Source of the DNA: Lachnospiraceae bacterium
GTDB lineage: Bacteria > Bacillota > Clostridia > Lachnospirales > Lachnospiraceae
Assembly: GCA_014804755.1 (NCBI GenBank)
Contig: JAAUZE010000008.1
Coordinates: 100,109 to 164,108, forward strand
Direction of reading: 5' to 3'
Length of the DNA: 64,000 nucleotides
This document shows, piece by piece, positions 7,450-47,258 of the stretch. Below the pieces are notes generated by a model. It ran no database searches and was not told the DNA's origin. It worked only from the letters and a program-made list of their open reading frames with translations. Position numbers and translations under genes: made by a program. Position 1 is the stretch's first letter. Every line of letters begins with the position of its first letter.

Positions 7450-8724
7450 ATGAATCATAATTATAAAAAATATATTGTTTTTTGGTTAAGTCAGGCGGTA
7501 TCGCAGCTTGGAAGTCAGCTCACGGGGTTTGCATTGATTCTGTGGGCGTATTCACAGAACCATTCTGCGATGACGGTTTCTTTGATGTCCTTTTTTAACT
7601 ATGTACCTTACATTTTAGTGAGTCTGGCGGCGGGAGCGTTTGTTGACAGCCATAGCAAAAAGGGGATCATGCTGGTATCGGATACGATCGCGGCGATCTG
7701 TTCCGTGGTCGTACTCTTTTTAAGCATGTCGGGAGGGCTGCGGGTCTATCATATCTATATGGTCAATTTTGTGATCGGGCTGACGAGCGCGTTCCAAGGA
7801 CCCGCGTCCGCGGTGGCGGTCGGAAAAATGGTGCCGGAGGAGAAACTTGCACAGGTGAGCGGGATGAACTCTTTTTCGGGTAATCTGATCATGGTGTTGG
7901 CGCCGGTGCTTTCCGCGTCGTTATTTGCATTTGGCGGATTAACGATGGTATTAGTGGTTGATCTGTCAAGCTTTGTTTTTGCATTTGCGGTGCTGCTGTT
8001 ACTGATATATATTCCCGAAAATGAGCGGTTACAAGACGATAAAAAATCAATATTTGAAGGATGTGCGGAAGGGTTTCGTTATCTGGCGCGGCAGAAGGCG
8101 ATTTTCACGATCATCATTACGATGGCGCTGCTCAATTTTTTCTCAAGGCTTACCTATGAGAATATTTTGTCGCCCATGATCCTGGCAAGGAGCGGAAATG
8201 ATTCTTTGACGCTCGGGATCGTAAATGCGGTGATGGGGATCGGCGGCATTGCAGGCGGAATTTTGGTTGCCGCGGGGAAGTTTTCGAAGAATAGCGTAAA
8301 GATGATTTATTTTTCCGCGATGTTGTCTTTTTTGCTGGGCGATCTTCTGATGGGTATGGGACGCGGCGTTGTCCTGTGGTCGTTTGCGGGACTGATGGCA
8401 AGTCTGCCGATTCCGTTTATCAATGCGGGTCAGAATGTCATTTTTTATCGTACGGTGCCGACGGAAATGCAGGGCCGGGTATTTGCGGTGAGAAACGCCA
8501 TTCAGTTCTGCACGGTTCCGGTTGGCATCTTATTAGGAGGATTTTTGGCCGACTATGTCTTCGAACCGTTTATGGCGGCGGAATACGGTGTGGTTTCTGC
8601 GCTTCAATTGCTCGTCGGGAAAGGCGCAGGAAGCGGTATGGCGGTGATGTTTTTGTGCACGGGGCTGTTGGGAAGCTTTTTCAGTTATGTGTGCTACAGA
8701 ATCTATGAGAGTCATGCGGAATAA
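7450..8724 (+). CDS. MFS transporter
   Basis: 424 aa with about 12 predicted TM helices and MFS-like loop motifs. Confidence 0.85.
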   Translation: MNHNYKKYIVFWLSQAVSQLGSQLTGFALILWAYSQNHSAMTVSLMSFFNYVPYILVSLAAGAFVDSHSKKGIMLVSDTIAAICSVVVLFLSMSGGLRVYHIYMVNFVIGLTSAFQGPASAVAVGKMVPEEKLAQVSGMNSFSGNLIMVLAPVLSASLFAFGGLTMVLVVDLSSFVFAFAVLLLLIYIPENERLQDDKKSIFEGCAEGFRYLARQKAIFTIIITMALLNFFSRLTYENILSPMILARSGNDSLTLGIVNAVMGIGGIAGGILVAAGKFSKNSVKMIYFSAMLSFLLGDLLMGMGRGVVLWSFAGLMASLPIPFINAGQNVIFYRTVPTEMQGRVFAVRNAIQFCTVPVGILLGGFLADYVFEPFMAAEYGVVSALQLLVGKGAGSGMAVMFLCTGLLGSFFSYVCYRIYESHAE

Positions 8725-8792
8725 AAAGAAGAATTTAACGTAAGAGAATGTATAGCAGCGGAGCGGCAGATAAGGACTGAAAGGGGAAACGA

Positions 8793-9635
8793 TTGGACAG
8801 ACTGTTACTCATTGACGGAAGCAACCTGTTGTTTCAAATGTTTTTTGGCATGCCGGCAAGAATCGTAAACGGGCAGGGAAAAGCGATTCAGGGGACGCTC
8901 GGCTTTGTGGGCGCCATGTTAAAAATCATCCGCATGGTGGAACCCACGCATATGGCGGTCCTATTTGACGGAGAGCATGAAAATCCCCGATGTGAGCTGG
9001 ATTCCGCTTACAAAGCGAACCGGCCGGATTATAGCACGGTATGTGAGGAAGAAAACCCGTTTTCCCAGCTGCCGGATGTATATAAAGCGTTGGATTTCCT
9101 TGGAATCAGGTACATAGAAACGATGGATTGTGAGGCGGACGATCTGATCGCCGGTTATGCGCTGTCATTCGGTCGGAATGAGGAGGTCGTGATCGCATCG
9201 TTTGACAGTGATTTTTTTCAGCTTATCACGGACAAGGTATCCGTGCTTCGTTATCGCGGTGAAAAAACAATGATCTGCACGCCGGAATATGTCAAGGAGA
9301 AATTTGATATTGCGCCGGAGCAATATGCGGATTGGAAATCGCTTGTGGGCGATACGGCGGACAACATTAAAGGTGCGGAAAAGGTTGGCGCAAAGACGGC
9401 GGCTTCGCTGCTTCATGAGTTTGGCACGCTGGAACAGGTTCTTTTTTATGCGGAAAAGATCGCAAAACCGTCCGTGAGACAATCCATCCTCCGGAATGCA
9501 GACAGGCTTCGGGTCAACTATCAAATGATCAAGCTTGCGGGCGGGGCGGCGCTGCCGTTCAGCGGGCAGGAATTGAAGTACCGCTATGACGGAAGGACGA
9601 CCAATGAGGTGTTGACGGGGATCGGATTGCGGTGA
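8793..9635 (+). CDS. 5'-3' exonuclease (Pol I N-terminal/FEN-like)
   Basis: 'LLLIDGSNLLFQ...' PIN/5'-nuclease motifs and a helix-hairpin-helix (H3TH) region. Apparent TTG start. Confidence 0.8.
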   Translation: MDRLLLIDGSNLLFQMFFGMPARIVNGQGKAIQGTLGFVGAMLKIIRMVEPTHMAVLFDGEHENPRCELDSAYKANRPDYSTVCEEENPFSQLPDVYKALDFLGIRYIETMDCEADDLIAGYALSFGRNEEVVIASFDSDFFQLITDKVSVLRYRGEKTMICTPEYVKEKFDIAPEQYADWKSLVGDTADNIKGAEKVGAKTAASLLHEFGTLEQVLFYAEKIAKPSVRQSILRNADRLRVNYQMIKLAGGAALPFSGQELKYRYDGRTTNEVLTGIGLR

Positions 9636-9654
9636 TGAGGAAAGCGGGCTTTGC

Positions 9655-10482
9655 ATGAGGAGCGGAGAGATTGTGGAAAGAGACAAGACTGTGAACAGAA
9701 ATCAGACGATGGAGAACAGTGAGATTATTGAAAGCAATAAGGCGTACTGGAATGAACATGCCGATCTGTGGTTTGGGACAACTGCGCTCCCTGTGTATGG
9801 GGTTCGGTTTCCGACAGGGGATGAGCTGCATCTGTTTGGGGACGTTACGGGTAAGAGGATGTTGGAAATATGCTGCGGCAGCGGGCATTCTTTGAAGTAT
9901 CATGCCGAGAGGGGCGCGGGCGAGTTATGGGGTGTTGATCTGTCGCAGAAGCAGCTTGATAACGCCGCGAGGCTGTTAAAGGAGAGCGGATATTCGGCAA
10001 AGCTGATCTGCTCCAAAATGGAAGCGGAACTCGATGTGCCGAAGGATTATTTTGATTATGTTTATTCCATCTACGGGATCGGATGGACAACGGATCTGCA
10101 GGGGACGTTTGATCATATCGCCTCTTATCTGAAAAAGGATGGGATTTTCATTTTCAGCTGGCATCATACCTTGAATTATTGCGTGGGATGGTCGTGCGAC
10201 GAGAGGAAGGACGTATTTGAAGATGATAAGCTGGTGATGACAAAAAGCTATTACGACGAGTCCTGGTTTAAAATGCCGGTGCATGACAGTGAGGTCATTC
10301 TTTGCAACAGAAAAATGTCAACCTATATCAATGCGCTGGCGAAAGCGGGCTTTGCGATTGAACAGCTGGTGGAGGAAACGGATGACGGGTCCCTGCACGC
10401 CGCAGAGGACGCGGATGCAAAAACGAAAAAAGCACAAATGCTGCCGATCTCATTTTGTATGAAGGCGAGGAAAATGCATTGA
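9655..10482 (+). CDS. class I SAM-dependent methyltransferase
   Basis: Motif I 'MLEICCGSGHSL'. Start uncertain; ATG at 9709 is an alternative. Confidence 0.65.
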   Translation: MRSGEIVERDKTVNRNQTMENSEIIESNKAYWNEHADLWFGTTALPVYGVRFPTGDELHLFGDVTGKRMLEICCGSGHSLKYHAERGAGELWGVDLSQKQLDNAARLLKESGYSAKLICSKMEAELDVPKDYFDYVYSIYGIGWTTDLQGTFDHIASYLKKDGIFIFSWHHTLNYCVGWSCDERKDVFEDDKLVMTKSYYDESWFKMPVHDSEVILCNRKMSTYINALAKAGFAIEQLVEETDDGSLHAAEDADAKTKKAQMLPISFCMKARKMH

Positions 10483-19392: not shown

Positions 19393-20580
19393 TTATATAT
19401 CGTACAATTCGTTGTAGAGCTTTTCGGTCAAGGGAACCGCTTGTTCCCATACGTTTAAAAATGTATCATAAAGATGTTTTCCACGGCTTTGTATATCATT
19501 TTCGGAAATTTCTATTATTTCAAATGAAGAATTAGTAATTTGGAGAGGGTATCCTTCGCTGTCACATATTATTGGACTATAAAGCACGGCGTTATCACTT
19601 ATGATTATAGATTCTTTGCGTGGGCATTTGTATAGCCTAATCATTTCGCTTATAGGCAAGTGAAATCTATTTTGCATCCTAACAGCCGCTTCCAAACAGG
19701 TTTGTAAATCTGCTAAGAATCTCCTCTCTTTGTCTTTGCTTACAGCTTTGGTCATAGCTTCGCTTTTTGGATGTGGAAATAGACATTTAAAATCCACCCC
19801 ATTATTTATTCCTTCAATGGCTAGATACTTAAAAAAATCATCATTTTCACCTGTAAATATTTTTTTATTCCTTCTGCCATAAAACCATAAACGTTTGCCT
19901 TGATAATCAATTACATTTCGAATAAGTATTTTCGTAAGAACGCTGGTTGAAAATCCTTTATGAAAAAGAATATGCTCCTTGGTTATTTCAGGACTAACTA
20001 TTGTGAAATTTCCATGGTTGTCCTTCATAATTTGCTCAACCAAATCTCTGCAAGTGTCGGGAATCATTTGTTCACGTTGCAAGATCATTTTAACTTCTTT
20101 TATATATGCATTCCAGTGACTATTGAAGTTTTTGATATCTGTATTAGAATCTTTTGCCAATTCTTGTAAAAAACGTTTGAATTCCTCTCGTGATTTCTTA
20201 AAATTATCATTTTCATTATTTAAACGTATAGGGACATAACGATTTAGAGGTTTATCTACCCATGATGACCAATCGGGAATATGTTCAAATAATATTGGTA
20301 TAACTATACTTCCTCCTGGCTCTGCAAAATGTGCACCATACACTACACCTGCTTCATACATTAACCAAGGATTCTTAAAATTATCTGATGTTATACAAAC
20401 GATACATTTATCACTTCTCAAAAGATTATTATGTATTTCATTATCAACGGATGTCCCTTTATACATATCGGGAGAAAAAAACACTTCAATTTTATTTTCT
20501 AATGTATTCAAGATGAATTTTTTTGTTTCTAATGCTAATAATTTACTTTTATCTTTTGACCAGCTAATAAATATTTCCAC
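19393..20580 (-). CDS. TIR-domain protein with uncharacterised C-terminal domain
   Basis: 'IFISWSKDKS', 'EVFFSPD' and 'CIVCITSDNFKNPWLMYEAGVV' match bacterial TIR boxes, including the putative catalytic Glu. GTG start sits 6 nt after the IR-borne GGAGG. Confidence 0.7.
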   Translation of the reverse strand: MEIFISWSKDKSKLLALETKKFILNTLENKIEVFFSPDMYKGTSVDNEIHNNLLRSDKCIVCITSDNFKNPWLMYEAGVVYGAHFAEPGGSIVIPILFEHIPDWSSWVDKPLNRYVPIRLNNENDNFKKSREEFKRFLQELAKDSNTDIKNFNSHWNAYIKEVKMILQREQMIPDTCRDLVEQIMKDNHGNFTIVSPEITKEHILFHKGFSTSVLTKILIRNVIDYQGKRLWFYGRRNKKIFTGENDDFFKYLAIEGINNGVDFKCLFPHPKSEAMTKAVSKDKERRFLADLQTCLEAAVRMQNRFHLPISEMIRLYKCPRKESIIISDNAVLYSPIICDSEGYPLQITNSSFEIIEISENDIQSRGKHLYDTFLNVWEQAVPLTEKLYNELYDI

Positions 20581-27169: not shown

Positions 27170-28165
27170 TCATGTGGAAACCTGTCTTTGCAGTCTCGCT
27201 TTCAGACTGTTCAGGAATCTTTCATTTTCGAGCACAGTAAGCATAGGCCCAAAGGACATGACTTCAATCAGCAGTTCGGTCTCCATATTCCGGTTATAAT
27301 AGATGACGCATTCATAGGTATCCTCATCTATTTTTGTAGTATTTTTTTCATAGTTTGCAAAGTGCAGCATGGCACGCTCAAGGGCATTGCGTTTGTTGAC
27401 AATGCGCAGTTTAAGAGGTTCTTTATAGTAAGAACGCTGAATCATCGCGTCTAAGTCCACAGGGGAGGATAGCGTTTTTGGCATCAGTTTTACGCTCTGA
27501 ATACGGGAAACATTCAGAATTTCCAGCTTCATTCTTCCGTCCGCTTTAGCTTCATGGTGCGAATCTGAATCAAAAGCCGGACGGCAAGGTTTCAAGGCGA
27601 GAATCCGGAATTTGTCATTTTTGACCGAGTATTCCAGACGGGCGGGGATATAGTGGTGATGTACGCGGTTCCCGTTGGGCGCGGTGTAGTCGATGTCCAC
27701 GTACTGTTTCTGTTTCTGTGCCTGAAGCAGAGTCCGAAAGCAGTGGCGGTAATTTTCATCCTCGTAAGGGTCGCTGTCGGCGAACCGATCGAAATAATAG
27801 AACTGTTCCGGTCTCCAAAGCGGAGCAACGGAAGCCAGCATTTTATCCAATGTTTCCAGCTGATCCTGTTCCAGGAACAACCCTATGCGCGGGTCGGACA
27901 GCAGTGCCTTAAGATAGGACTTCTCAAGGCTGGAAACAGGGGTGATAAAGGAGGATGAGAGACGGGAATGGTATAGCTTCCCATCCTTTTCAAATAAATT
28001 CCATGTCCCGTCTTCCAGCCTGGGGATTATGGAGAGCAGGCTCTCCTCAAAACCTTCGTCGCAGATCCGGCGGCGGATGTCTTGCATGGTCAGTGCGTCC
28101 TGACTGCACAGTAAATGTCTTAATACCTGGTAGTAACAGCTATATATTTCTGAGAATACTTCCAT
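27170..28165 (-). CDS. WYL-domain protein with WCX-like C-terminus
   Basis: 'YVDIDYTAPNGNRVHHHYIPARLEYSVKNDKFRILALK' is a WYL-like beta-barrel and the C-terminal '...PMLTVLENERFLNSLKARL' is WCX-like. Lies 15 nt downstream of its paralog. Confidence 0.6.
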   Translation of the reverse strand: MEVFSEIYSCYYQVLRHLLCSQDALTMQDIRRRICDEGFEESLLSIIPRLEDGTWNLFEKDGKLYHSRLSSSFITPVSSLEKSYLKALLSDPRIGLFLEQDQLETLDKMLASVAPLWRPEQFYYFDRFADSDPYEDENYRHCFRTLLQAQKQKQYVDIDYTAPNGNRVHHHYIPARLEYSVKNDKFRILALKPCRPAFDSDSHHEAKADGRMKLEILNVSRIQSVKLMPKTLSSPVDLDAMIQRSYYKEPLKLRIVNKRNALERAMLHFANYEKNTTKIDEDTYECVIYYNRNMETELLIEVMSFGPMLTVLENERFLNSLKARLQRQVST

Positions 28166-28180
28166 AGGTCTTCTTCCTTT

Positions 28181-29425
28181 TCAAGAGTTGTCCTTTATTT
28201 GGTACATCCGGCACATTGTCTGTAGATCCCGATAAAAGCGATGTTCCACGGATTTGTCCGTACATTCCAGAGACAAGATCCTGCCTATGAAGGTGCGGAT
28301 CCAGGGCAGCATCTCATTGCAGTCGAATACTTCTATTTCGTACTGATAAACATTACGTTCTATTCTTGTGACCGTACCGCCTCTGCCCTCACGCTTTAAA
28401 CGTTCCACAATATATTGTTCGGAAGGTTCCAGAGCCTGTATTGTCATAGTCAGCCGGTTAAGGTGGTGTCGGGCATTCCCCTGAAAGGATACGCCCCACA
28501 GATGGCAGCGGTTCCGATCCAGCTGTGCCAGCAGTTCCTCATATTTCTCCGATTGGTCTAAGAGAGTGACGGTTTTGACGGTATCCAGGCGGTAGCAGGT
28601 GAAACGCTTACTTTTTTTCGCATATCCGCATAGAAAACGGCGGCCGCTTCTGGTGCTGGTGAAAATCTGCAGGGGCGTACAGTCGGCGGTATTCAGTGCT
28701 CCGTTTTTGGAGCTTTTTATTTCCAGACGTACATCTGTCTTATGGTTCATGGCATTCAGAAGGTCGAAAAGGATTTCCTCCTCCAAAGTATGTACGCAGA
28801 AGCTGTGTTTCACCCGGAAGGTCCGGTTGTGATGATCAAACTGTTCCGAAAGGTGGTTTCCGATGATCCCGAAGCTCCCTGCCATCTGGTAAAATGCAAG
28901 GGCGTCCAGCATGCTCTCATTGGATTTTATCCAGACAGCCAGAGAATTATCGATGGAAAAAACGATGGTTTTCCCAGATTTCTTTTTATGTAACAGCCCT
29001 TCTTTTTCATAGGCGTTGCATTTTCGGCGAACGGTCTGTATATCGAACAGCGCCTCATATTTCTCAAGCAGGCCGCCTGTTATTTCCTCCGCAGTCAATT
29101 CTGCGCCGTCCTGAAGCAGATCAAGTATCAGAAAATGGAGCACGATATCGTTGTCGGTGAAGCTTTTCGTCTTCCATACCCGAAACAGAGGGTTGGTATC
29201 CAGCAGGTTACTGTCTATGGCGAGAGAAATGTTGGAGCCGTTAGACACATGGTCTTTCCGCACATGATTCCCAAGCCAGCTTTCCAGTCGCCTCCGTTCA
29301 TTGTCGTAGGTTCGGGGGCTTTTGTCCTTGAATTCATCTCTGGTCTTGAAGCCGTAGACAAAAAAATCACGCACATATTCTCTTGTTTTGGGAAAGCTTT
29401 TGACCAGCTCCTGAAAATCAGACAT
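28181..29425 (-). CDS. HTH-WYL-WCX transcriptional regulator-like protein
   Basis: N-terminal wHTH 'KSPRTYDNERRRLESWL', a WYL-like 'PLQIFTSTRSGRRFLCGY' and C-terminal 'IQALEPSEQYIVERLK'. Confidence 0.6.
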   Translation of the reverse strand: MSDFQELVKSFPKTREYVRDFFVYGFKTRDEFKDKSPRTYDNERRRLESWLGNHVRKDHVSNGSNISLAIDSNLLDTNPLFRVWKTKSFTDNDIVLHFLILDLLQDGAELTAEEITGGLLEKYEALFDIQTVRRKCNAYEKEGLLHKKKSGKTIVFSIDNSLAVWIKSNESMLDALAFYQMAGSFGIIGNHLSEQFDHHNRTFRVKHSFCVHTLEEEILFDLLNAMNHKTDVRLEIKSSKNGALNTADCTPLQIFTSTRSGRRFLCGYAKKSKRFTCYRLDTVKTVTLLDQSEKYEELLAQLDRNRCHLWGVSFQGNARHHLNRLTMTIQALEPSEQYIVERLKREGRGGTVTRIERNVYQYEIEVFDCNEMLPWIRTFIGRILSLECTDKSVEHRFYRDLQTMCRMYQIKDNS

Positions 29426-37799: not shown

Positions 37800-38018
37800 A
37801 TGTTCGGAAAAAAGAAGCTTCAAGTGGAATACTATGACAAAGAAAATGTAAAGCCGGTCATCCGCGCCAGCATCTGCACGGGAGAGCAGGTTGCCGGATT
37901 TAAGAATATTCATACCGGAAAGTTTGAGGAGATCATGCTGATCCGGGACGAGCGGGATAAAGAAGTATTTTTGAGCAGGTACGGCATTTCGGCGGGGGAA
38001 ATCACAAAGGAATATTAA
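37800..38018 (+). CDS. small hypothetical protein (72 aa)
   Basis: SD AAGGAGGAA before the ATG at 37800. Confidence 0.4.
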   Translation: MFGKKKLQVEYYDKENVKPVIRASICTGEQVAGFKNIHTGKFEEIMLIRDERDKEVFLSRYGISAGEITKEY

Positions 38019-38043
38019 TTGCTGCAGAGAAAGAGAGATAAAT

Positions 38044-38787
38044 ATGCAGATAGATTTTTATTATTGGGGCGGCATGTGTCCTATTTCAGACGAAATCATT
38101 CAAATGCTGTCACGTTGGGATAACAAATTTGATATTCGGTTGCATGACATAACAAATGATTTTGATCTGGCAAAAAATAAAAGCATGTTCTTTCCGTTCC
38201 TCACGATTGTGAATCATAAAGAAAGATATTATGGCCCTGTTTCAGAAGCATTCTTACAAACGTTAAGTACGGGAATGCTGCCAAAAGAAACTCCATATAG
38301 AATTACGATGGGAACAGTCGAAAAAAGCGAGGTCATTCAGCCGATACATAAGGATAATTATTTTCTTGCGTCACAGTGTACCGGTAGAAGGAATTGTTCA
38401 GGATGTAGTTCAAAGGTTAAAATGTATCAGGATTTTCCGGATGGAATAATCGGGTTTATGAATATGGATAACGAAACATTGTTGGGGGGCGCGGAGTACG
38501 TTCCATCTTTGTACGTCCCATATGATATTCCTAAGGGACAGGAAATTGCATTTATTACCTGTGTTTATTTGTCAGATGAGACTTTTGATTATAAATCAGC
38601 ACCATTGAGGGCATTAGAACAATATCTGTCAAAGCGGTACAAAAAAGCGATTGTTATTTCAGATGAAGAAGGTACTTTTCCGAATGGGGATTTACAATTT
38701 TTCGAGAAAAACGGATATCATGATGAGAAAGTGATTTTTGAGGATCGTTATTGCAGACTGCATCTCTTAGTGAAAGATTTAATTTAA
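38044..38787 (+). CDS. hypothetical protein
   Basis: Open reading frame with downstream hairpin/T-tract at 38912-38960. Confidence 0.45.
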   Translation: MQIDFYYWGGMCPISDEIIQMLSRWDNKFDIRLHDITNDFDLAKNKSMFFPFLTIVNHKERYYGPVSEAFLQTLSTGMLPKETPYRITMGTVEKSEVIQPIHKDNYFLASQCTGRRNCSGCSSKVKMYQDFPDGIIGFMNMDNETLLGGAEYVPSLYVPYDIPKGQEIAFITCVYLSDETFDYKSAPLRALEQYLSKRYKKAIVISDEEGTFPNGDLQFFEKNGYHDEKVIFEDRYCRLHLLVKDLI

Positions 38788-39072
38788 TAAATAAAAATTT
38801 GATTGACATAGTTGAACTCCATTTATATAATACTAGTATAGATGAGCAATCATCAGGTGAGTCCTACCGATAAGTGGAATCGATAAGAGAGTATTTCCGT
38901 TGCGACGGATACTACCGAAAGGCTATGCTTTGGCGTAGCCTTTTCTATTATTTTTTAACACAAACATGACACACAGATGTCATGTTTTGCGTTCTATGAT
39001 AAATAAAAGCGGAGACAGAAGCGATAAAAGCGATGTGCCGCGGGCGAGGGTGCGGCATACAGGAGGACCGCC

Positions 39073-41591: not shown

Positions 41592-41712
41592 TGAAAGGAT
41601 TGACATACGGGAGAGCAATTATAGTCTTATTCTTTTTACGGAATTGTGCACCCGTTTATAATTGGTTATAATTGCAATAACAATAAGAATTATACGGAAA
41701 AGGAGACTGAAA

Positions 41713-42135
41713 ATGCAGATCGTACCTACGCTAAGTTTTGGAGGAAATTGTCGGGAAGCCATTCATATGTATGAAAAGGCATTTAATGGGAAGATTAGTT
41801 GTCTGATTACATATGGAGAAGCGAATGATCCCGAATATAATCCGTTGCTTAAAGAAAATCAAAAAGAGTATATATACCATTCGGAACTTGTATTGGGCAA
41901 TCAAAGAATCATTATGAGCGACCATGTGGATATTGAATTTCAAACGTGCTATTCAAATTTCCTCACTGTTATGTATGATACAAAAGAAGAAGTGCAAAGA
42001 GCATATGAAATCATGAAAGAAGGAAGTAAGACAATATATCAACTGGAAGCGACTCCATATAGTTCTTGTCGAGTTGTTTTTGTTGATAAGTTTGGAATTC
42101 GTTGGGGAATTATGACCGAGCAAACAGCGGAATAA
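41713..42135 (+). CDS. VOC/glyoxalase-family protein (PhnB-like)
   Basis: 'MQIVPTLSFGGNCREAI' N-terminus typical of PhnB-like VOC proteins. Confidence 0.6.
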   Translation: MQIVPTLSFGGNCREAIHMYEKAFNGKISCLITYGEANDPEYNPLLKENQKEYIYHSELVLGNQRIIMSDHVDIEFQTCYSNFLTVMYDTKEEVQRAYEIMKEGSKTIYQLEATPYSSCRVVFVDKFGIRWGIMTEQTAE

Positions 42136-42159
42136 AGCAGAGATGCGGGAGAGTCAGTT

Positions 42160-42873
42160 ATGTGCGGACGCTACTATATGGAGGATGATACTGCAAAAGA
42201 GATCGAGAAAGTCATTCGCTGGGTGGATGAAAAACTGCGCGCACAGCGGACTGTGCAGGAAGCAACGCGGAAACAGGAGGCAGGAATTACGCAGGAGAAG
42301 AACCCTTGGAATGAAGGAAAAGGGAACGTTGCGGCAGGAATCGGGAAGGCGGGAGACATTTACCCTGCGGCACTTGCACCCGTGCTCGGCGCCGGGATGG
42401 AAACCGCCGGATACAGAACCTTAGATTGCCGCATGCTGCGCTGGGGACTGCCGGGATATACGCTGAAGGGAAACGGCAAAAAAGGACAGGTTATTTTTAA
42501 TGCACGGAGCGAAACTGCGATGGAGAAACCGACCTTTCGGGAGGGGATAAAAAACCATCGCATTGTGATCCCGGCGGCGGGCTTTTATGAGTGGAACCAC
42601 AAAAAAGAAAAATATCGTTTTCGCAGAACCGATTCGCCCGTACTTTTTATGGCGGGATGTTTTCGGCGTTATGAGGACGGCGATCGGTTTGTCATCCTGA
42701 CAACGGCGGCGAATGCATCTATGGAACCGGTGCATGACCGCATGCCGCTTATTTTGGAACCGGACGAGATCGCGGATTGGATATGGGACGGGGAGCGGAC
42801 GAAAAATCTGTTGGAAAAACAACCCTGCCTTTTAGAGCGCACGACGGACTATGAGCAGATGACGCTCTTTTAA
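42160..42873 (+). CDS. SOS-response-associated peptidase (SRAP/YedK family), abasic-site processing protein
   Basis: N-terminal 'MCGRY' with catalytic Cys2; size 237 aa. Confidence 0.85.
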   Translation: MCGRYYMEDDTAKEIEKVIRWVDEKLRAQRTVQEATRKQEAGITQEKNPWNEGKGNVAAGIGKAGDIYPAALAPVLGAGMETAGYRTLDCRMLRWGLPGYTLKGNGKKGQVIFNARSETAMEKPTFREGIKNHRIVIPAAGFYEWNHKKEKYRFRRTDSPVLFMAGCFRRYEDGDRFVILTTAANASMEPVHDRMPLILEPDEIADWIWDGERTKNLLEKQPCLLERTTDYEQMTLF

Positions 42874-42892
42874 GCGCATGGAAAAAAATACC
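42823..42892. repeat. direct repeat, left copy (3' end of SRAP gene plus 19 bp)
   Basis: 64/70 identical to 45547-45616. Confidence 0.8.
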
Positions 42893-43212
42893 CACAACGT
42901 GCATTTTAGATATATTCCTGAATTGTAAAGTTAACTTCCATATGAAACGGTAAATTCTACATGCACTTTGAAAACGCCATAAATTTTAAAGTTTTTAGTT
43001 ACGATAACTTCCGAAATGTGGTATACTCATCTCAAATTTATGCTAAAAATCGTGTTTAGAAGCATGGCAAACAGGCCTCTGGAAGATGGGTGTGTCAGAC
43101 TAACTTCTACAGGCCGTTAGAGATATGTTTGATTTCTGACCAGCGGCGGTTTTGCATAAGTTTATAAAGCTACTTAAGCAGCTTCGGGGACAGCTTTACT
43201 TCATCGGGTGCG

Positions 43213-43503
43213 ATGTACCGGAGCTGCAGCTTTTGTAGCGTCTCCAGATCTGAGAGGATGGTTCCTTTAAAAATAGTTAGTGCATTATTAATTGTTTCAC
43301 CAATTATTGTACCCATTTCTCCAATTAACAACATTGATATTATATTATCTATTCCGCTAGCATTTTTGGGATTGGCAATTATTGTTGCATGCTCTGTTAA
43401 TGATTATGAGAGCAAAGAACCTTTAGAGTTGAAAGATAAAATTGACCATAATAAATGTACAATAGGTTCTTGTAATCAACTAATTAATTATTTATCAAAA
43501 TAA
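43213..43503 (+). CDS. small hydrophobic hypothetical protein
   Basis: Low-GC ORF with two predicted TM segments; start uncertain (43258 possible). Confidence 0.3.
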   Translation: MYRSCSFCSVSRSERMVPLKIVSALLIVSPIIVPISPINNIDIILSIPLAFLGLAIIVACSVNDYESKEPLELKDKIDHNKCTIGSCNQLINYLSK

Positions 43504-43736
43504 GCATTTAAGTCAAACACATAGTCGTAAGTAACAGGTAGTAAAATTTGAAATACTTAAAGCATAATATAGTGTTACAAAAGAAATAAGACATCAACTA
43601 ATGTGTTTTTATTGTACGACTACCCTTTCATATTATGCAAAAATATGTTCTGTATAGTATTGACACGCAATATGTAGTATAATGTCAATATTGGTATTTT
43701 ATTATAAAACCATTGACAATTGCGAGGAAAATATTA

Positions 43737-44480
43737 ATGAAATCGATAGGAACTTCAATGCATGAAGATTTATCACTATTTATAGATGAATCTGGCAGCA
43801 TAACTAAAACTAATATATCTTTTAATAGGTACTTTATTATTGCCATTCTATTTACACGGAAATATAGTAGATTGCAAAGATATTTTCAAAAGGGAATTGC
43901 GTCTTTATTGCAAAACCCCAAATATAAAATAATGCTGGAAGAAAATGGAGAAATAAAGGGAAGTAAGTTATCGGAAACAAAAAAGAAACCTATTTACGAT
44001 CGTATTATAAGAAATTGCTCAGAAGATTTTGAATTGGGAATAATTGTTTTAGATAATACATATACTACAGATGAGTTTATAAAAAATCATGCTAGAACAT
44101 TCAATTATATATTGCAACTCTACTTAGATAATATGTTTAGACATTGTAGTAAGTATTCTAAAAATACAAGAGATATGAGAATATTGATAGATGAACAAAA
44201 TATTTCTACAGATGCTAAGTATACATTGGATGATTATCTAGAACAGCATTTTACTGTTATGAATCCATTATGTCGCACGGTAGATGTTAAATATACAGAT
44301 TCTAAAAACCACCCTATGATTCAATTAATTGACTTTATATCTAACACTTTTTATCGAAACCTTGAAAAACATGATAAAACAAGTATAGAAACTGTAAAAA
44401 TGTTACTTCCCTATGTTTGTGGCGGAAAAATATTTGATTTTTCAACTAATCATGACACAAGATTAATGTTGGATGAATAA
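43737..44480 (+). CDS. DUF3800-like protein
   Basis: N-terminal 'LFIDESGS' hallmark of DUF3800. SD GAGGAAA before the ATG at 43737. Low GC. Confidence 0.55.
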   Translation: MKSIGTSMHEDLSLFIDESGSITKTNISFNRYFIIAILFTRKYSRLQRYFQKGIASLLQNPKYKIMLEENGEIKGSKLSETKKKPIYDRIIRNCSEDFELGIIVLDNTYTTDEFIKNHARTFNYILQLYLDNMFRHCSKYSKNTRDMRILIDEQNISTDAKYTLDDYLEQHFTVMNPLCRTVDVKYTDSKNHPMIQLIDFISNTFYRNLEKHDKTSIETVKMLLPYVCGGKIFDFSTNHDTRLMLDE

Positions 44481-44883
44481 TATAGAATGTACTTGACAAC
44501 ATTATTATGGTATGTTATATTTACTTCACCAAGTAATTTCCCTTATACGGTGCATGAGGATGTAAGGCGGCTGTAATGTCGTCCACCATAGGGTTTTGGT
44601 AGAAAGACATTCCAGATATGGGATGTTTTTTCGCTTTATAAGTAAATATTTTCATATATAAAAGAGACGGGATTGATCACCTCGTCTCTTTTATTACAAT
44701 GCCCTTTTATTAATTTTAGAAAGGATGTGATCTGATCAATCTAATACTACCACATAGTCCTACAATTAGATTGTGTCAATCACCAAAGCTGTTAACCAAG
44801 CTTTTACAGACTCAGGAGAAACTTAAGAAGAATGTTGTGAAAAAGCAAGAAATGTTGACGTGTGTTTGCTGTTCTTATTTATG

Positions 44884-44912
44884 TTGAACTGCAGGCCTTT
44901 TTCGGGTATAAT
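44884..44912 (+). promoter_or_regulatory. consensus sigma-A promoter TTGAAC-17-TATAAT
   Basis: Exact -10 and near-consensus -35 with 17-bp spacer, 58 nt upstream of the antitoxin ATG. Confidence 0.6.
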
Positions 44913-44970
44913 TCATTCATGGCAGGAAAATAGGTTTCCGATTGGTTCGATCATGAGAGGGGGATTTCCC

Positions 44971-45213
44971 ATGAGCACTTTAGATGCAACAGTTTCCATG
45001 CTGGAAGCAATGCCGGAGGAGGCAAGAATCAAGGTTTTGGAATTTACGAAGCAGTTGTTCAACTCCAGAAAGCCGGCCAATCCGTTTGTCCCGGTCAGTC
45101 AGAGGCAGGTTCATTCCGACCTTACGGAATCACGTCAGCAGATTGCTGCCGGACAGGGATTGAATATGGAAGACGCTTTAGACAGAATGGGAAAACAGCA
45201 TGAATTCATTTGA
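44971..45213 (+). CDS. type II antitoxin (partner of RelE/ParE toxin)
   Basis: 80 aa; SD GAGGGGG; overlaps the toxin start by 14 nt. Confidence 0.6.
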   Translation: MSTLDATVSMLEAMPEEARIKVLEFTKQLFNSRKPANPFVPVSQRQVHSDLTESRQQIAAGQGLNMEDALDRMGKQHEFI

Positions 45214-45523
45214 TGTAATTATTTCACCAAAAGCATTGTCTCAACTGAACAGTTATGTTGATTATCTGCAATATACGCTGCTGAATGATCAGGCAGCTCG
45301 TAATGTGTGGCAGGATGCCATGGAAACACGGGATCAGCTTTCAAAAGCTGTCGAGGGTCTGAAACCCTGTTCTTATCCTCTGCTAAAAAAGAACGAATAC
45401 TGTGTCATCCATTTCATGCGGCACCGCTATCTGATGCTTTATCGGATAGAGGGATCGACCATTTATGTGGATGCGATATATCATCAGCTTCAGGACTATG
45501 AAAATATTTTTGCAGATGAATGA
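45200..45523 (+). CDS. type II toxin, RelE/ParE family
   Basis: 107 aa; 'YRIEGSTIYVDAIYHQLQDYE' C-terminal RelE/ParE pattern. Confidence 0.75.
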   Translation: MNSFDVIISPKALSQLNSYVDYLQYTLLNDQAARNVWQDAMETRDQLSKAVEGLKPCSYPLLKKNEYCVIHFMRHRYLMLYRIEGSTIYVDAIYHQLQDYENIFADE

Positions 45524-45546
45524 GGCCGGTCAAAGCACAAAGGCGG

Positions 45547-45616
45547 CCCTGTCTTTTAGAGCGTACGACGGACTATGAGCAGATGACGCTCGTTTAAACA
45601 TATGGAAAAAAATACC
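45547..45616. repeat. direct repeat, right copy (degenerate)
   Basis: 64/70 identical to 42823-42892; the reading frame is interrupted by TAG. Confidence 0.8.
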
Positions 45617-45661
45617 GGTTGAAAGCAGAACGTATGTTTGCTATAATGTGTCACACAGGAG

Positions 45662-46936
45662 GTGAACACACGTTTGAAATCAGTGATATTTCATATTGAT
45701 GTGAATGCAGCCTTCCTTAGTTGGGAGGCTGTTTATCGTCTGTATCATAAAGGAGGGACAGTGGATCTTCGCGAGATCCCTTCAGCGGTAGCGGGAGATG
45801 CAAGTCTGCGCCACGGCATTATTCTTGCCAAGTCCATACCGGCGAAGCGATATGGCATACAGACGGGCGAGAGCATACCGGAGGCAAAAAGAAAGTGTCC
45901 GGGGCTCACGCTTGCCGCGCCGAACTATAACCTGTATGAGCGCTGCTCTGCGGCGGTGATGGAGATCCTGCGGGAATACTCGGACACCGTGGAGCAGTAC
46001 AGCATTGACGAGGCATTTGTGGATATGACGCAGACCTGCCATTTGTTCGGGGAGCCGGAGCAGACTGCGGAAATGATAAAGGATCGGATTCATCGTGAAT
46101 TGGGATTTACGGTGAATGTGGGGGTGTCGGAAAACAAGCTGCTCGCTAAGATGGCGTCTGATTTTCGGAAGCCGGATAAGGTGCATACACTGTGGAAGTC
46201 GGAAATACAGAGGAAAATGTGGCCGCTCTCCGTATCGGAGCTGTTTTTTGTGGGAAGGGCGACCGCGAAAAAACTATTTTCTGTCGGGATCAGGACGATC
46301 GGGGAGCTTGCGCAGGCGGATCCGGCATATATCAAGAGCATACTCAAAAAGCAGGGAGAGATCGTGTGGGCATTTGCGAACGGGCTGGATTCTTCCCCGG
46401 TGATGAAGCAGGCTCCGGCCAACAAAGGATACGGGAACAGCACAACCACTCCTTTTGACGTGACGGATGCGCCGACAGCCAAAAAAGTGTTGTTGGCGCT
46501 GTCGGAAACGGTGGCGGCAAGGCTTCGCGCAGATGGCGTGCAGATCGGTGTGGCTGCCGTGGGGATCAAAGGAACGGATTTCTCCTACTGCTCGCACCAG
46601 CGTGTACTGCCGGTTTCCACCAATATTACGCTGGAGATTTATCAGGCGGCGTGCGGGCTGTTTGACGAGCTTTGGGGCGGGAGTCCGATCCGGCATCTGG
46701 GCGTGCATACCTCCGGCGTATGCAGAGAGAACTTCACAAGACAGATGAGCCTGTTTGACGGGGCGGACTACGAAAAGCTGGCACGACTGGATACGGCGGT
46801 GGACGCTGTTCGGGAACGGTTCGGCGCGGATGCGTTGATGAGGGCAGCCTTTTTAAATCAACCGATTGACCATATGAGCGGAGGAATCTCAAGAGAAAAG
46901 AGAGAGGCGGATTACAGCGGAATGAAACCGGAATAG
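45662..46936 (+). CDS. Y-family DNA polymerase (DinB/Pol IV-like)
   Basis: 'IFHIDVNAAFLSWE' and 'YSIDEAFVDMT' catalytic motifs; 424 aa. Confidence 0.85.
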   Translation: MNTRLKSVIFHIDVNAAFLSWEAVYRLYHKGGTVDLREIPSAVAGDASLRHGIILAKSIPAKRYGIQTGESIPEAKRKCPGLTLAAPNYNLYERCSAAVMEILREYSDTVEQYSIDEAFVDMTQTCHLFGEPEQTAEMIKDRIHRELGFTVNVGVSENKLLAKMASDFRKPDKVHTLWKSEIQRKMWPLSVSELFFVGRATAKKLFSVGIRTIGELAQADPAYIKSILKKQGEIVWAFANGLDSSPVMKQAPANKGYGNSTTTPFDVTDAPTAKKVLLALSETVAARLRADGVQIGVAAVGIKGTDFSYCSHQRVLPVSTNITLEIYQAACGLFDELWGGSPIRHLGVHTSGVCRENFTRQMSLFDGADYEKLARLDTAVDAVRERFGADALMRAAFLNQPIDHMSGGISREKREADYSGMKPE

Positions 46937-46946
46937 GAGGTGCGCG

Positions 46947-47258
46947 ATGGCATTCGGGGCAGGAAAAGAACATCAGGACGGGCATGCAGGGCAGATACGC
47001 GGGAGGCAGCAGGAGGTTGCCTGTGAGTGCTGGTTTACCAGTACCGGGAGGCTGATACCATTGATGCTGAAGTTAAAAGACGAGGACGGAATGTGCCGAA
47101 CCGTCAGACCGATCATGGTGCATTCCGCTGAGAAAAAAATGTATGCGGGCACGCCCTTTATCGAGTTTGACTGTGAGATTGTGGTGAGGGAACAAAGGAT
47201 ACGCGTATGGCTGATCTATTATCAGAGTGAGAACCGCTGGGTGTTGAACTTCCGGTGA
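46947..47258 (+). CDS. hypothetical protein, possibly YolD-like (commonly found after Y-family polymerase genes in Firmicutes)
   Basis: Position and size only. Confidence 0.35.
   Translation: MAFGAGKEHQDGHAGQIRGRQQEVACECWFTSTGRLIPLMLKLKDEDGMCRTVRPIMVHSAEKKMYAGTPFIEFDCEIVVREQRIRVWLIYYQSENRWVLNFR

Follow-up and report, generated by a model that had tools for sequence, protein, structure and literature searches.

The islet that separates the SRAP (YedK-like) gene from the gene for the Y-family DNA polymerase IV (Pol IV) in a Lachnospiraceae genome is best explained as a composite of two independent acquisitions at a hot spot between SRAP and the SOS-type Pol IV promoter, a reading to which we assign a probability of about 0.6. 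It was analyzed within a window of 64 000 nt (contig JAAUZE010000008.1 of assembly GCA_014804755.1). According to the proposed scheme, the first event, old and shared by at least three species, would have been the insertion of a minimal parDE/relBE-type toxin–antitoxin (TA) cassette of 676 bp with duplication of 96 bp of the target, a stretch that begins 51 nt upstream of the SRAP stop and ends immediately 5' of the Pol IV -10. Because these 96 bp were duplicated, SRAP would have kept its 3' end (in copy 1) and Pol IV a complete promoter (in copy 2), while the redundant halves (promoter sequence in copy 1, SRAP sequence in copy 2) would be decaying. In a second, recent and strain-specific event, a 1.96-kb AT-rich fragment may have entered the dead promoter half of copy 1. 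The functional core of this fragment would be a gene for a DUF3800 nuclease with an RNase H2-like fold and a separately transcribed structured small RNA (sRNA), together 0.95 kb. The order and the number of the events are read from a handful of genomes of the clade. The features are listed in Table 1.

Table 1. Features of the SRAP–Pol IV region (positions in the window)
Feature	Position	Strand	Basis or remark
SRAP (YedK-like) gene	42160..42873	+	Pfam SRAP E=2.5e-39, ORF list; last 51 nt open repeat copy 1
Direct repeat copy 1, first 70 of 96 nt	42823..42892	.	SRAP 3' end and 19 nt
Low-GC block, 1961 bp, 30.8% GC	42893..44853	.	Absent from same-species L082/L084 and from L001/L002/L107
Orphan left part of block	42893..43736	.	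No Pfam, PADLOC or NCBIfam match
54-aa ORF	43170-43334	minus	Within left part of block
Small hydrophobic ORF, ORFan	43213/43258-43503	+	Sole database match is itself
DUF3800 gene, 247 aa	43737..44480	+	RNase H2-like fold (model)
Predicted sRNA promoter, TTGACA-17-TATATT with TG	44493..44521	+	Joint best promoter-like score in the region
Structured sRNA, about 105 nt	44528..44631	+	Multi-stem core, then invariant terminator hairpin and T-run
sRNA terminator hairpin and T-run	44607-44631
Second hairpin with T/A runs, bidirectional terminator-like	44660..44692	.	End of conserved DUF3800+RNA unit
Relic GTTGACGTGTGTTTGCT of last 26 nt of copy 1	44854..44870	.	Alignment with L082, L001, L002 and copy 2
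TA cassette, 676 bp	44871..45546	+	Common to L001, L002, L082, L084, L107; 44% GC
TA promoter, TTGAAC-17-TATAAT	44884-44912		Promoter scoring
Antitoxin ORF, 80 aa	44971-45213	+	14-nt overlap with ParE gene; no Pfam match
ParE/RelE toxin gene	45200-45523	+	Pfam ParE_toxin PF05016
Filler, 23 nt	45524-45546		Unique sequence
Direct repeat copy 2, full 96 nt	45547..45642	.	Orphan SRAP 3' fragment, then live Pol IV -35 and LexA-like box
Pol IV promoter	45619-45647		-35 at 45619-45624
LexA-like box GAACGTATGTTT of Pol IV promoter	45628-45639		Inside repeat copy 2
Y-family DNA polymerase IV gene	45662..46936	+	Pfam IMS/IMS_C, NCBIfam DNA polymerase IV

The duplicated target and the toxin–antitoxin cassette

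The original prediction rested on 70-bp direct repeats at both ends of the islet, and these are indeed present (42823-42892 and 45547-45616, 64/70 identical or 91%, 2724 nt from start to start). Their perfect cores of 27 and 15 nt occur at these two sites only in the window (0 expected from shuffles), and no dispersed repeat is involved. The true length of the repeat is 96 nt, made up of the last 51 nt of SRAP and 45 nt of the spacer; the spacer part includes the Pol IV -35 and the LexA-like box and ends at the -10. This form is uninterrupted in the same-species contig L082 (positions 9576-9671). In the window, the low-GC block has cut copy 1 off from its last 26 nt, of which a 17-nt relic, carrying a dead Pol IV -35 and LexA-like box, remains. 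Since the same arrangement is present in several independent assemblies, it is not an assembly artefact. The predicted disruption of the second copy by a TAG has to be dropped: the TAG, inside CTTTTAGAG, lies outside the SRAP frame and is found in both copies, and copy 2, read in that frame, has no stop between ATG 45520 and TAA 45597.

Related genomes hold the site in empty and in partly filled form. In L003, positions 8665-8742 match both repeat copies, and in more than 25 genomes of related Lachnospiraceae SRAP is followed by Pol IV after 61-151 nt. These empty sites, with a single copy of the sequence, agree with the prediction that an insertion splits an SRAP–polymerase pair, though in L003 precise loss of the cassette by recombination between the repeats could in principle have given the same result. 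Two contigs of the same species (L082 and L084) and three loci of two other species (L001, L002 and L107) have the order SRAP-repeat-TA-repeat-Pol IV, with neither the small ORF nor DUF3800; therefore, the repeats bound the TA cassette only. In L082 and L084 the ParE protein is identical, the flanks are 95-98% identical, the low-GC DNA is absent and the uninterrupted 96-nt copies are 89.6% identical to each other. L001, L002 and L107 share these TA junctions, and copy 2 is independently truncated in them, different parts having been lost in L001 and L002. As the remnant of copy 2 in L001 is 97% identical to copy 1, both copies appear to have been alike at the start.

The partly filled sites bear directly on the claim that the whole of 42893-45546 is one site-specific integrative or satellite element whose integrase has decayed or acts in trans, the low-GC part having been lost secondarily elsewhere. 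It would account together for the repeats at both ends, the empty site in relatives and the low GC. However, where the low-GC block sits in the window, L082, L084, L001 and L002 carry an uninterrupted copy of the target, a homologue of both copy 2 and the empty sites, so that deletion of the low-GC part would need exact restoration of the target. The composition is also split: the low-GC block has 31% GC, the TA cassette 44% and the flanks 52-54%. Thus, of the sharp fall in GC described between the repeats, one part stands (26-33% over about 43250-44750 versus 46% in the whole window and 52-54% in SRAP and Pol IV), whereas the cassette does not share it. Finally, each part is found at other sites on its own, the DUF3800+RNA unit with no TA cassette and the TA cassette with no DUF3800. 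We consider a single element highly improbable.

The cargo named in the original prediction is all there: the small hydrophobic ORF, the DUF3800 gene and the RelE/ParE pair with its own promoter. By domain, gene layout and own predicted promoter, the cassette qualifies as a putative type II TA system of the ParE/RelE superfamily. The toxin matches PF05016 (30.9 bits versus a cutoff of 23, E=4.1e-7) and has more than 300 homologues, the few of which with a source name are called RelE/ParE toxins, and antitoxin and toxin genes are kept together as a pair at other loci. The cassette contains hardly anything else, the non-TA DNA amounting to 13 nt at its left end and 23 nt at its right. What it shares with relatives elsewhere reaches only from about the -10 box to the stop codon, or from the -35 box if aligned manually. 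No flanking repeats surround these relatives at other chromosomal sites, and the 23-nt filler has no other copy that could have templated it. The toxin itself is 107 aa long versus 109-110 aa in the examined relatives at other sites. The shortened ParE, the unique filler and the repeat-less relatives may be read as signs of an illegitimate joint; long identical flanks would also be expected from an integrase-borne att site or from a single crossover with a circle. In viral contigs, the nearest ParE relatives are only 47% identical.

The low-GC block and its DUF3800 gene with structured RNA

Alignment with relatives shows the low-GC block to be an insertion of its own, later than the cassette and strain-polymorphic, in the promoter-derived half of repeat copy 1. 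Its junctions are messy, with 8 nt missing and a possible duplication of ACGTG, and nothing matched its ends in blastn-short and tblastx comparisons with all DUF3800 loci. Neither DNA comparison nor tblastx matched the left part of the block to a DUF3800 locus, a phage or a plasmid, and no homologues of the small hydrophobic ORF were found. Exact-protein look-ups for orf103 and DUF3800 returned the same arrangement again and nothing else.

The conserved DUF3800+RNA unit spans 43751-44696 (0.95 kb). The protein matches DUF3800 (PF12686) with 52.2 bits (cutoff 21, E=1.4e-13), and residues D17, E18, Q196 and D199, which make up an N-terminal DE and a C-terminal QxxD motif, are invariant across 29 homologues. 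A confident structural model predicts an RNase H2-like fold. The sRNA starts about 48 nt 3' of the DUF3800 stop, at an equal position in six other loci. It is retained 3' of DUF3800 genes down to 52% protein identity, and its conservation exceeds that of the coding sequence. Our own alignment of six sequences gives a structure of 31 pairs, in which 98.9% of the cells are paired and five pairs have changes on both sides; in a control with the partners slid, about 40% are paired. Further compensatory changes can be seen by eye in the homologue from L117.

A full-length match to the Rfam family DUF3800-I (RF02969) covers 44513-44638, but stays below the threshold (26.3 bits, the gathering score being 44.2; E=0.048 if 361 nt are searched and 0.54 for 4 kb). 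The sRNA homologues from L113 and L117 gave no DUF3800-I match at E<=1, and an Rfam search of the whole homologous loci returned nothing at E<=1. The core architecture of DUF3800-I and its UAAG...UGUAA signature are present in the sRNA, which is a divergent variant or a sister motif of DUF3800-I. Antisense pairing of the sRNA with the 5' regions of DUF3800, antitoxin, ParE, Pol IV and SRAP was no better than with shuffles. PADLOC has no DUF3800 model and returned a weak irrelevant match only, and a viral scan for close DUF3800 relatives found none.

The DUF3800+RNA unit is also found at unrelated sites, often defence-island-like. It is tempting to regard the pair as an RNA-dependent nuclease module, probably engaged in defence or in conflict between elements. 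In its full form, in which a stand-alone RNase H2/PIWI-like protein together with its own independently transcribed RNA would constitute a defence or addiction system that travels between hot spots as a 0.95-kb unit, the idea is tentative. A more extreme version has no support: by analogy with the bridge or guide RNAs of some RNase H-fold recombinases, the RNA might direct the insertion of the unit, but the inserted block exceeds the conserved unit and lacks defined ends.

Mobility and the origin of the duplication

The spacer between SRAP and Pol IV emerges as a recurrent insertion hot spot in Lachnospiraceae, in which the insertions preserve the SOS promoter. In other genera the same spacer holds two TA pairs (L037), a PD-(D/E)XK nuclease (L027) or a methyltransferase (L032). 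L037 has patchy local duplications, and there the duplicated SRAP sequence around the TA cargo is much longer. In L051, the SRAP end recurs over 95 nt at a distance of 7.5 kb downstream, which resembled a second att pair, but the recurrence turned out to belong to a whole SRAP paralogue of 642 nt (85% identity), and ordinary genes separate the two copies. C-terminal SRAP fragments next to Pol IV in L064, L074 and L076 reflect disruption of SRAP by ICE or IS110 DNA and involve no duplication. In more distant genera, inspection of the genes 3' of SRAP revealed no obvious recombinases.

At the islet itself there is no sign, in the sequences searched, of a self-mobile integrative element. The prediction that no integrase lies within the interval holds: no recombinase was found in 42893-45546 among ORFs of at least 40 aa, in domain searches or in six-frame translations, nor in annotated genes within about 10 kb or in ten further ORFs of the window. 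No tRNA was found, and neither insertion has terminal inverted repeats. A transposon or insertion sequence is not supported, as the interval contains no transposase domain, terminal inverted repeats are lacking, and a 96-bp duplication is not the short, fixed-length target duplication of such elements. Among 80 genome loci, there was no second type of occupant bearing the repeat. A metagenome scan with the 20-nt repeat core returned one L002-like contig and one chance match only, a viral scan with the core (for attP) gave 0 matches, and neither the low-GC block nor the TA cassette with repeat had a DNA match in BLAST searches of phages and plasmids, although all these collections are incomplete. 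For the suggested decayed, trans-mobilised or satellite element, neither the genome loci nor the metagenome and viral scans yielded a cognate integrase or a shared att. The suggested reconstitution of the target gene end is supported: owing to the duplication, SRAP remains intact, and so does the promoter of Pol IV.

A larger site-specific element (prophage, ICE or island), with attB at the SRAP 3' end and a copy of that end in its attP, could still have left the TA cassette and its 96-bp repeats behind; an internal deletion would have taken the integrase and all the rest, the addictive TA would have survived, and the DUF3800 block would have come later. Flanking repeats that rebuild a gene 3' end are the classic signature of such elements, phage 21 and e14 at icd being examples. 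The zone is indeed subject to deletions, as L001 and L002 lack different parts of copy 2, and ICE genes or IS110 adjoin truncated SRAP in L076 and L064, both from other genera. On the other hand, the 80 genome loci and the metagenome and viral scans yielded no integrase-bearing occupant, and the cassette, with its 13 and 23 nt of other DNA, is nearly bare. Moreover, the repeat reaches 45 nt beyond the SRAP stop into a promoter, which is needless for reconstituting SRAP, and the copies appear to have been identical at origin. A remnant of this kind is, in our view, unlikely.

Recombination between the 96-bp repeats might also excise an integrase-less circle of about 770 bp (cassette and one repeat), whose re-entry into a naive SRAP–Pol IV site by a single homologous (Campbell-type) crossover would regenerate the repeats. 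The 27-nt perfect core and 90% identity over 96 nt are compatible with such exchange. The same junctions occur in three species in which SRAP is more divergent than the cassette; between the window and L002, SRAP DNA is 85% and the cassette 95% identical, which suggests transfer of the cassette. The longer SRAP stretch duplicated around TA in L037 is what one would predict if each repeat is as long as the homology that came in with the cargo. Yet the first origin of the structure would be left unexplained, 96 bp is short for an efficient RecA crossover, no circle junction was observed, and whole-locus exchange via flanking homology explains the mosaic identities equally well. We therefore rate the circle as a somewhat poorer candidate than the remnant, and unlikely as well.

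Under the preferred reading of two separate acquisitions, both pieces would have arrived as transferred DNA, and recombination or repair by the host would have done the joining (illegitimate or duplicative), with no dedicated integrase involved. Later spread may have proceeded via homologous recombination in the conserved flanks, and addiction might explain why the TA pair was retained. More generally, a repeat-bounded low-GC stretch that resembles a single integrative element can be a stack of unrelated acquisitions, and long target duplications can border a bare TA cassette without a recombinase.

Comparison with known systems

Phage 21 and e14 integrate at icd, that is, at the 3' end of a protein gene, and carry the replacement end. 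As in islands of this type, the repeats described here derive from the target 3' end, the target gene is intact and relatives have an empty site. In contrast to them, integrase and other element genes are missing, the insert being just the 676-bp TA cassette; the repeat continues for 45 nt past the gene into the promoter of its neighbour, and a second independent insertion is present. Another parallel is offered by integrase-less accessory or defence hot spots between core genes, which, according to pangenome studies, fill by homologous recombination of the flanks. The locus resembles them in its varied small cargo, which differs by lineage (TA pairs, nuclease, methyltransferase, DUF3800), in presence or absence within a species and in having no mobility gene. 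It differs in the 96-bp target duplication, which plain allele replacement does not yield. In the E. coli dinB-yafN-yafO-yafP operon, a type II TA pair is joined to Pol IV under LexA control. Here, too, such a pair adjoins a Y-family polymerase gene controlled by a LexA box, but it precedes the polymerase gene and has a promoter of its own, it is of another family (ParE/RelE), and it is a secondary insertion.

In type VII retrons, and at Cas12a2, Cas12a3 and type VI-F loci, DUF3800 is known to serve as an accessory nuclease with an RNase H fold (PMC7736814, PMC10910872, PMC12669027, PMC13594972). The domain, the RNase H2-like fold, the non-coding RNA and the defence contexts are common to these systems and the present gene, which, unlike them, stands alone, with no reverse transcriptase, Cas gene or TPR fusion. 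DUF3800 genes with adjacent RNA motifs, DUF3800-I to -XI, have been described (Weinberg et al. 2017, PMC5737381). The sRNA reported here differs from DUF3800-I in scoring below the gathering threshold and in having homologues that the family model does not match. It resembles the published pairs in that the DUF3800 gene is followed directly by a conserved structured RNA ending in an intrinsic terminator. Perhaps the most useful product of the analysis is a handle on the eight-year-old puzzle of these gene/RNA pairs: the locus offers a compact unit with a mapped (predicted) promoter and terminator, a covariation-supported structure and a confident RNase H2-like model, together with natural carrier and non-carrier strains of one species.

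Direct repeats and empty sites between SRAP and Pol IV

The SRAP gene and the Y-family polymerase (Pol IV) gene are separated by an islet framed by a 70-nt direct repeat (Table). The two copies are identical at 64 of 70 positions and lie 2724 nt apart, start to start. Copy 1 consists of the final 51 nt of SRAP and 19 nt beyond, copy 2 sits just upstream of the Pol IV gene, and the perfect 27-nt and 15-nt cores that they share have no further copy in the 64 kb (chance expectation, none). Between the copies GC content is 26-33% over ~43250-44750, against a window mean of 46% and 52-54% for the two flanking genes. Repeats flanking a GC drop were part of the original prediction and were confirmed, as was the cargo that it named (a small hydrophobic ORF, a DUF3800 protein and a toxin pair with its promoter). 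Its claim that TAG breaks the frame of copy 2 was mistaken: the TAG lies off the SRAP frame and is found in copy 1 too. Copy 2 read in that frame amounts to a 17-codon orphan fragment within a 25-codon ORF, the ATG of which overlaps the ParE stop.

Table. Features of the window
Feature	Position (strand)	Description
TIR_2 gene	19393-20580 (-)	395-aa protein
Adjacent ORFs	27170-29425 (-)	331 and 414 aa; no Pfam match
Low-GC stretch	38000-39000	35% GC; 72-aa and 247-aa ORFs without Pfam family
VOC/3-dmu-9_3-mt-like gene	41600-42140	35% GC
SRAP gene	42160-42873	Pfam SRAP, E=2.5e-39
Repeat copy 1	42823-42892	70 nt
Low-GC block	42893-44853	1961 bp
DUF3800 gene	43737-44480	E=1.4e-13
Predicted sRNA promoter		TTGACA-17-TATATT with TG extension
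DUF3800-I model alignment	44513-44638	26.3 bits
sRNA terminator hairpin	44607-44625	CATTCCAGATATGGGATG
Resurfacing repeat end	44854-44870	GTTGACGTGTGTTTGCT
TA cassette	44871-45546	antitoxin and ParE/RelE toxin
ParE/RelE toxin gene		E=4.1e-7; overlapped by 80-aa gene; TTGAAC-17-TATAAT promoter ahead
Repeat copy 2	45547-45616	70-nt form
Pol IV gene	45662-46936	IMS and IMS_C domains; NCBIfam DNA polymerase IV
ORF after Pol IV	46947-47258 (+)	103 aa; no Pfam or NCBIfam family

A scan with the SRAP protein, one genome per species, yielded 80 loci, mainly from Lachnospiraceae metagenome-assembled genomes (MAGs). In more than 25 of them the gap between SRAP and Pol IV is only 61-151 nt. Empty sites, anticipated by the original prediction, were thus found in these loci and in L003, a close relative whose Pol IV is 95% identical to that of the window. 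Alignment of the left window flank extends to position 8742 of L003 and that of the right flank begins at position 8665; since the alignments overlap, both repeat copies correspond to one 78-nt stretch. Judged from these alignments, a single stretch matching both copies is the signature expected of a target-duplicating insertion. At the empty site, 19 nt separate the SRAP stop from the Pol IV promoter, in which a GAAC-N4-GTTT box lies between -35 and -10. By its pattern, we take this box to be a putative Gram-positive LexA-type operator.

The toxin-antitoxin cassette and the later low-GC insertion

Contigs of the same species, retrieved by exact look-up of the ParE protein, come in two states. 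L081 and L083 match the window exactly, whereas L082 and L084 lack 42893-44853 (flanks 95-98% identical). Two loci from different species, L001 and L002, contain SRAP, antitoxin, ParE, Pol IV and nothing more. The repeats belong to the TA cassette and not to the whole interval, which the original prediction had regarded as one site-specific integrative element. A target-duplicating insertion stands, but the identity as a single element does not: L082 and L084 miss the low-GC block and retain cassette and repeats. Contradicted by these unoccupied alleles, the single-element version is highly improbable.

In L082 the repeat is unbroken and 96 nt long (9576-9671 and 10348-10443, 89.6% identical). 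It starts at CCCTG, 51 nt ahead of the SRAP stop, covers the spacer, the -35 of the Pol IV promoter and the LexA-like box, and ends with TTTGCT, at the base before the Pol IV -10. In copy 2 of the window the LexA-like box occupies 45628-45639. The 676 bp between the copies consist of 13 unassigned nt on the left, the TA promoter with its two genes, and a 23-nt filler without a second copy in the window or in the 121 fetched loci. Copy 2 has been trimmed by distinct deletions in L001 and L002, the latter bounded by two GCAGATGA octamers (one at the ParE end, one in the SRAP fragment), and the promoter-derived end of copy 1 is mutated differently in each lineage. Because what L001 retains of copy 2 matches copy 1 at 97% identity and the redundant ends have diverged, the two copies were probably identical at the start and later drifted wherever redundant.

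Elsewhere in chromosomes, relatives of the TA cassette (77-82% identical) occur as solitary units. Their similarity to it begins at the promoter boxes and reaches no further than the stop codon, and no repeats flank them; a mechanism that creates repeats is therefore not the usual means by which the cassette moves. Compared with the relatives examined at other sites, this ParE is shorter by two or three residues. The short ParE, the unique filler and the seemingly identical initial repeats suggest that the joint at the ParE end is illegitimate. A small circle formed through the repeats could have re-entered by a single homologous crossover, a route that we consider improbable.

In the window, copy 1 ends ...AAAAAATACC at 42892, and the rest of the 96-nt repeat resurfaces only next to the TA cassette. 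The block between (30.8% GC versus 44.4% for the cassette) thus interrupts a target that is continuous in L082, L084, L001 and L002 and that has homologues in copy 2 and the empty sites. This block was inserted second, after the cassette. The state without it is ancestral, as a deletion would need exact restoration of the target. The block lacks both terminal inverted repeats and a recombinase, and its junctions are untidy: the right side lacks 8 nt of target, and ACGTG is found on both sides. Its left 850 bp and final 157 bp gave no matches, and its small ORF has no homologue except itself.

The DUF3800 gene and its downstream RNA

DNA similarity to other DUF3800 loci (77-86%) is limited to 43751-44696, that is, the coding sequence and ~216 nt downstream. 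Proteins 66-92% identical to that of the window are encoded at very different places, adjacent to ToxN, GmrSD/Mrr-type or HARE-HTH genes, beside a TnpB gene of IS605 type, or with housekeeping genes on both sides. Distant homologues (28-32%) are encoded by temperate phages of Listeria, satellite phages of Streptococcus and a small number of plasmids.

Downstream of the gene lies a predicted sRNA promoter that ties for the top promoter-like score in the region. The predicted RNA spans 44528-44631 and measures ~105 nt. The Rfam DUF3800-I model aligns end to end, below the gathering score of 44.2. Given this score, and since two homologues of the RNA have no match to the model at E<=1, we treat the RNA as a putative divergent relative of the DUF3800-I motif, not as a member. 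We aligned it with the equivalent regions of six other DUF3800 loci (protein identity down to 52%), and the RNA part proved better conserved than the gene in every comparison. In a five-helix structure, counted on six sequences, 98.9% of cells pair, compared with ~40% for slid partners; both partners changed in five pairs (12 cells). By eye, further compensatory changes are seen in L117, the most divergent of the sequences. No special complementarity was found between the RNA and neighbouring 5' regions. The terminator hairpin is identical in six of the seven aligned loci, including the one with only 52% protein identity, and has one substitution in L111; such conservation goes beyond the needs of termination.

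The association of DUF3800 with RNA has been reported (PMC5737381), an RNase H2-like fold has been predicted for DUF3800 in type VII retrons (PMC7736814), and some Cas12 and Cas13 loci include DUF3800 as an accessory gene (PMC10910872, PMC12669027, PMC13594972). The searchable literature contains no demonstrated function, and PADLOC has no model for DUF3800. A well-delimited DUF3800 and RNA unit with natural carrier and non-carrier strains is the most useful result of this analysis. Carriers are represented in metagenomes ERZ27267579 and SRR11425437, non-carriers in ERZ27276840 and ERZ23499996. Elsewhere in the window, the TIR_2 gene and the two adjacent ORFs may be defence-type genes. Both strain types have the low-GC stretch at 38000-39000, whose neighbours are an Rce1-like gene and a WYL regulator.

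The proposed SRAP-Pol IV hot spot and known systems

SRAP, Pol IV and the 103-aa ORF, 10 nt after Pol IV, form a conserved trio; the ORF keeps its place in nearly all relatives (41-95% identity). Directly upstream of SRAP, the VOC gene is replaced by a carboxylesterase gene in L082, placed otherwise in L002 and not detected in L001, so SRAP is flanked by a second variable spot. SRAP itself (42145-42892) varies in mosaic fashion between species. Identity to L002 is 85% over the whole gene, versus 95% for the adjacent TA cassette; against L003 the 3' 540 nt are 93.5% identical, the first ~100 nt 77%, and the next ~110 nt unalignable. These patterns place recombination breakpoints inside SRAP. 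In L004 (~8740-8775) the SRAP 3' end carries a 17-nt tandem duplication (GCAGATGACTCTGTTTT / GCAGATGACCCTGTTCT) involving the octamer behind the L002 deletion. In Acetatifactor-like genomes (L076 1-3700; L064 4619-6795; L074) only the C-terminal 82-105 residues are left of the Pol IV-linked SRAP, and conjugative-element genes (TTRAP, DUF3849, YodL) or an IS110 transposase precede it; there SRAP is a target of mobile elements.

In other genera the SRAP-Pol IV spacer holds a PD-(D/E)XK nuclease, a methyltransferase or, in L037 (7239-9645), two TA pairs. The 1.6 kb in the latter spacer encode a ParE-like toxin pair and a Phd/YefM antitoxin with its partner, flanked by a 27-nt repeat. As the insert also holds a 66-nt copy from upstream of SRAP and a 35-nt copy from inside SRAP, it is a decayed local (tandem) duplicate of the SRAP region. 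No integrase-bearing element at the site and no matching attP were found in genome, metagenome or viral collections. That the cassette was left by a larger integrase-bearing element, whose insertion could have produced repeats and an empty site, is accordingly unlikely, if somewhat less so than the small circle. Taken together, the solitary TA relatives, the joint at the ParE end, the varied spacer cargo and the negative searches for an integrase-bearing element favor a hot spot (probability roughly 0.6) at which host recombination or repair would join in transferred DNA, in some cases with duplication. The surviving events would be only those sparing SRAP and the Pol IV promoter.

Prophage integration that reconstitutes a gene end resembles the islet in repeats and empty site. 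However, the islet has no recombinase, does not behave as a unit and shows no recurrent att use. Pangenome studies describe accessory hot spots without an integrase, and these are a better fit, to which the islet adds an unusually long target duplication. In E. coli dinB-yafNOP, a type II TA pair likewise lies beside an SOS-controlled Pol IV, but in the window the pair was inserted secondarily and has its own promoter. The locus is a fresh example of known things: a layered hot-spot islet, a ParE/RelE cassette and a DUF3800 gene with a variant partner RNA.
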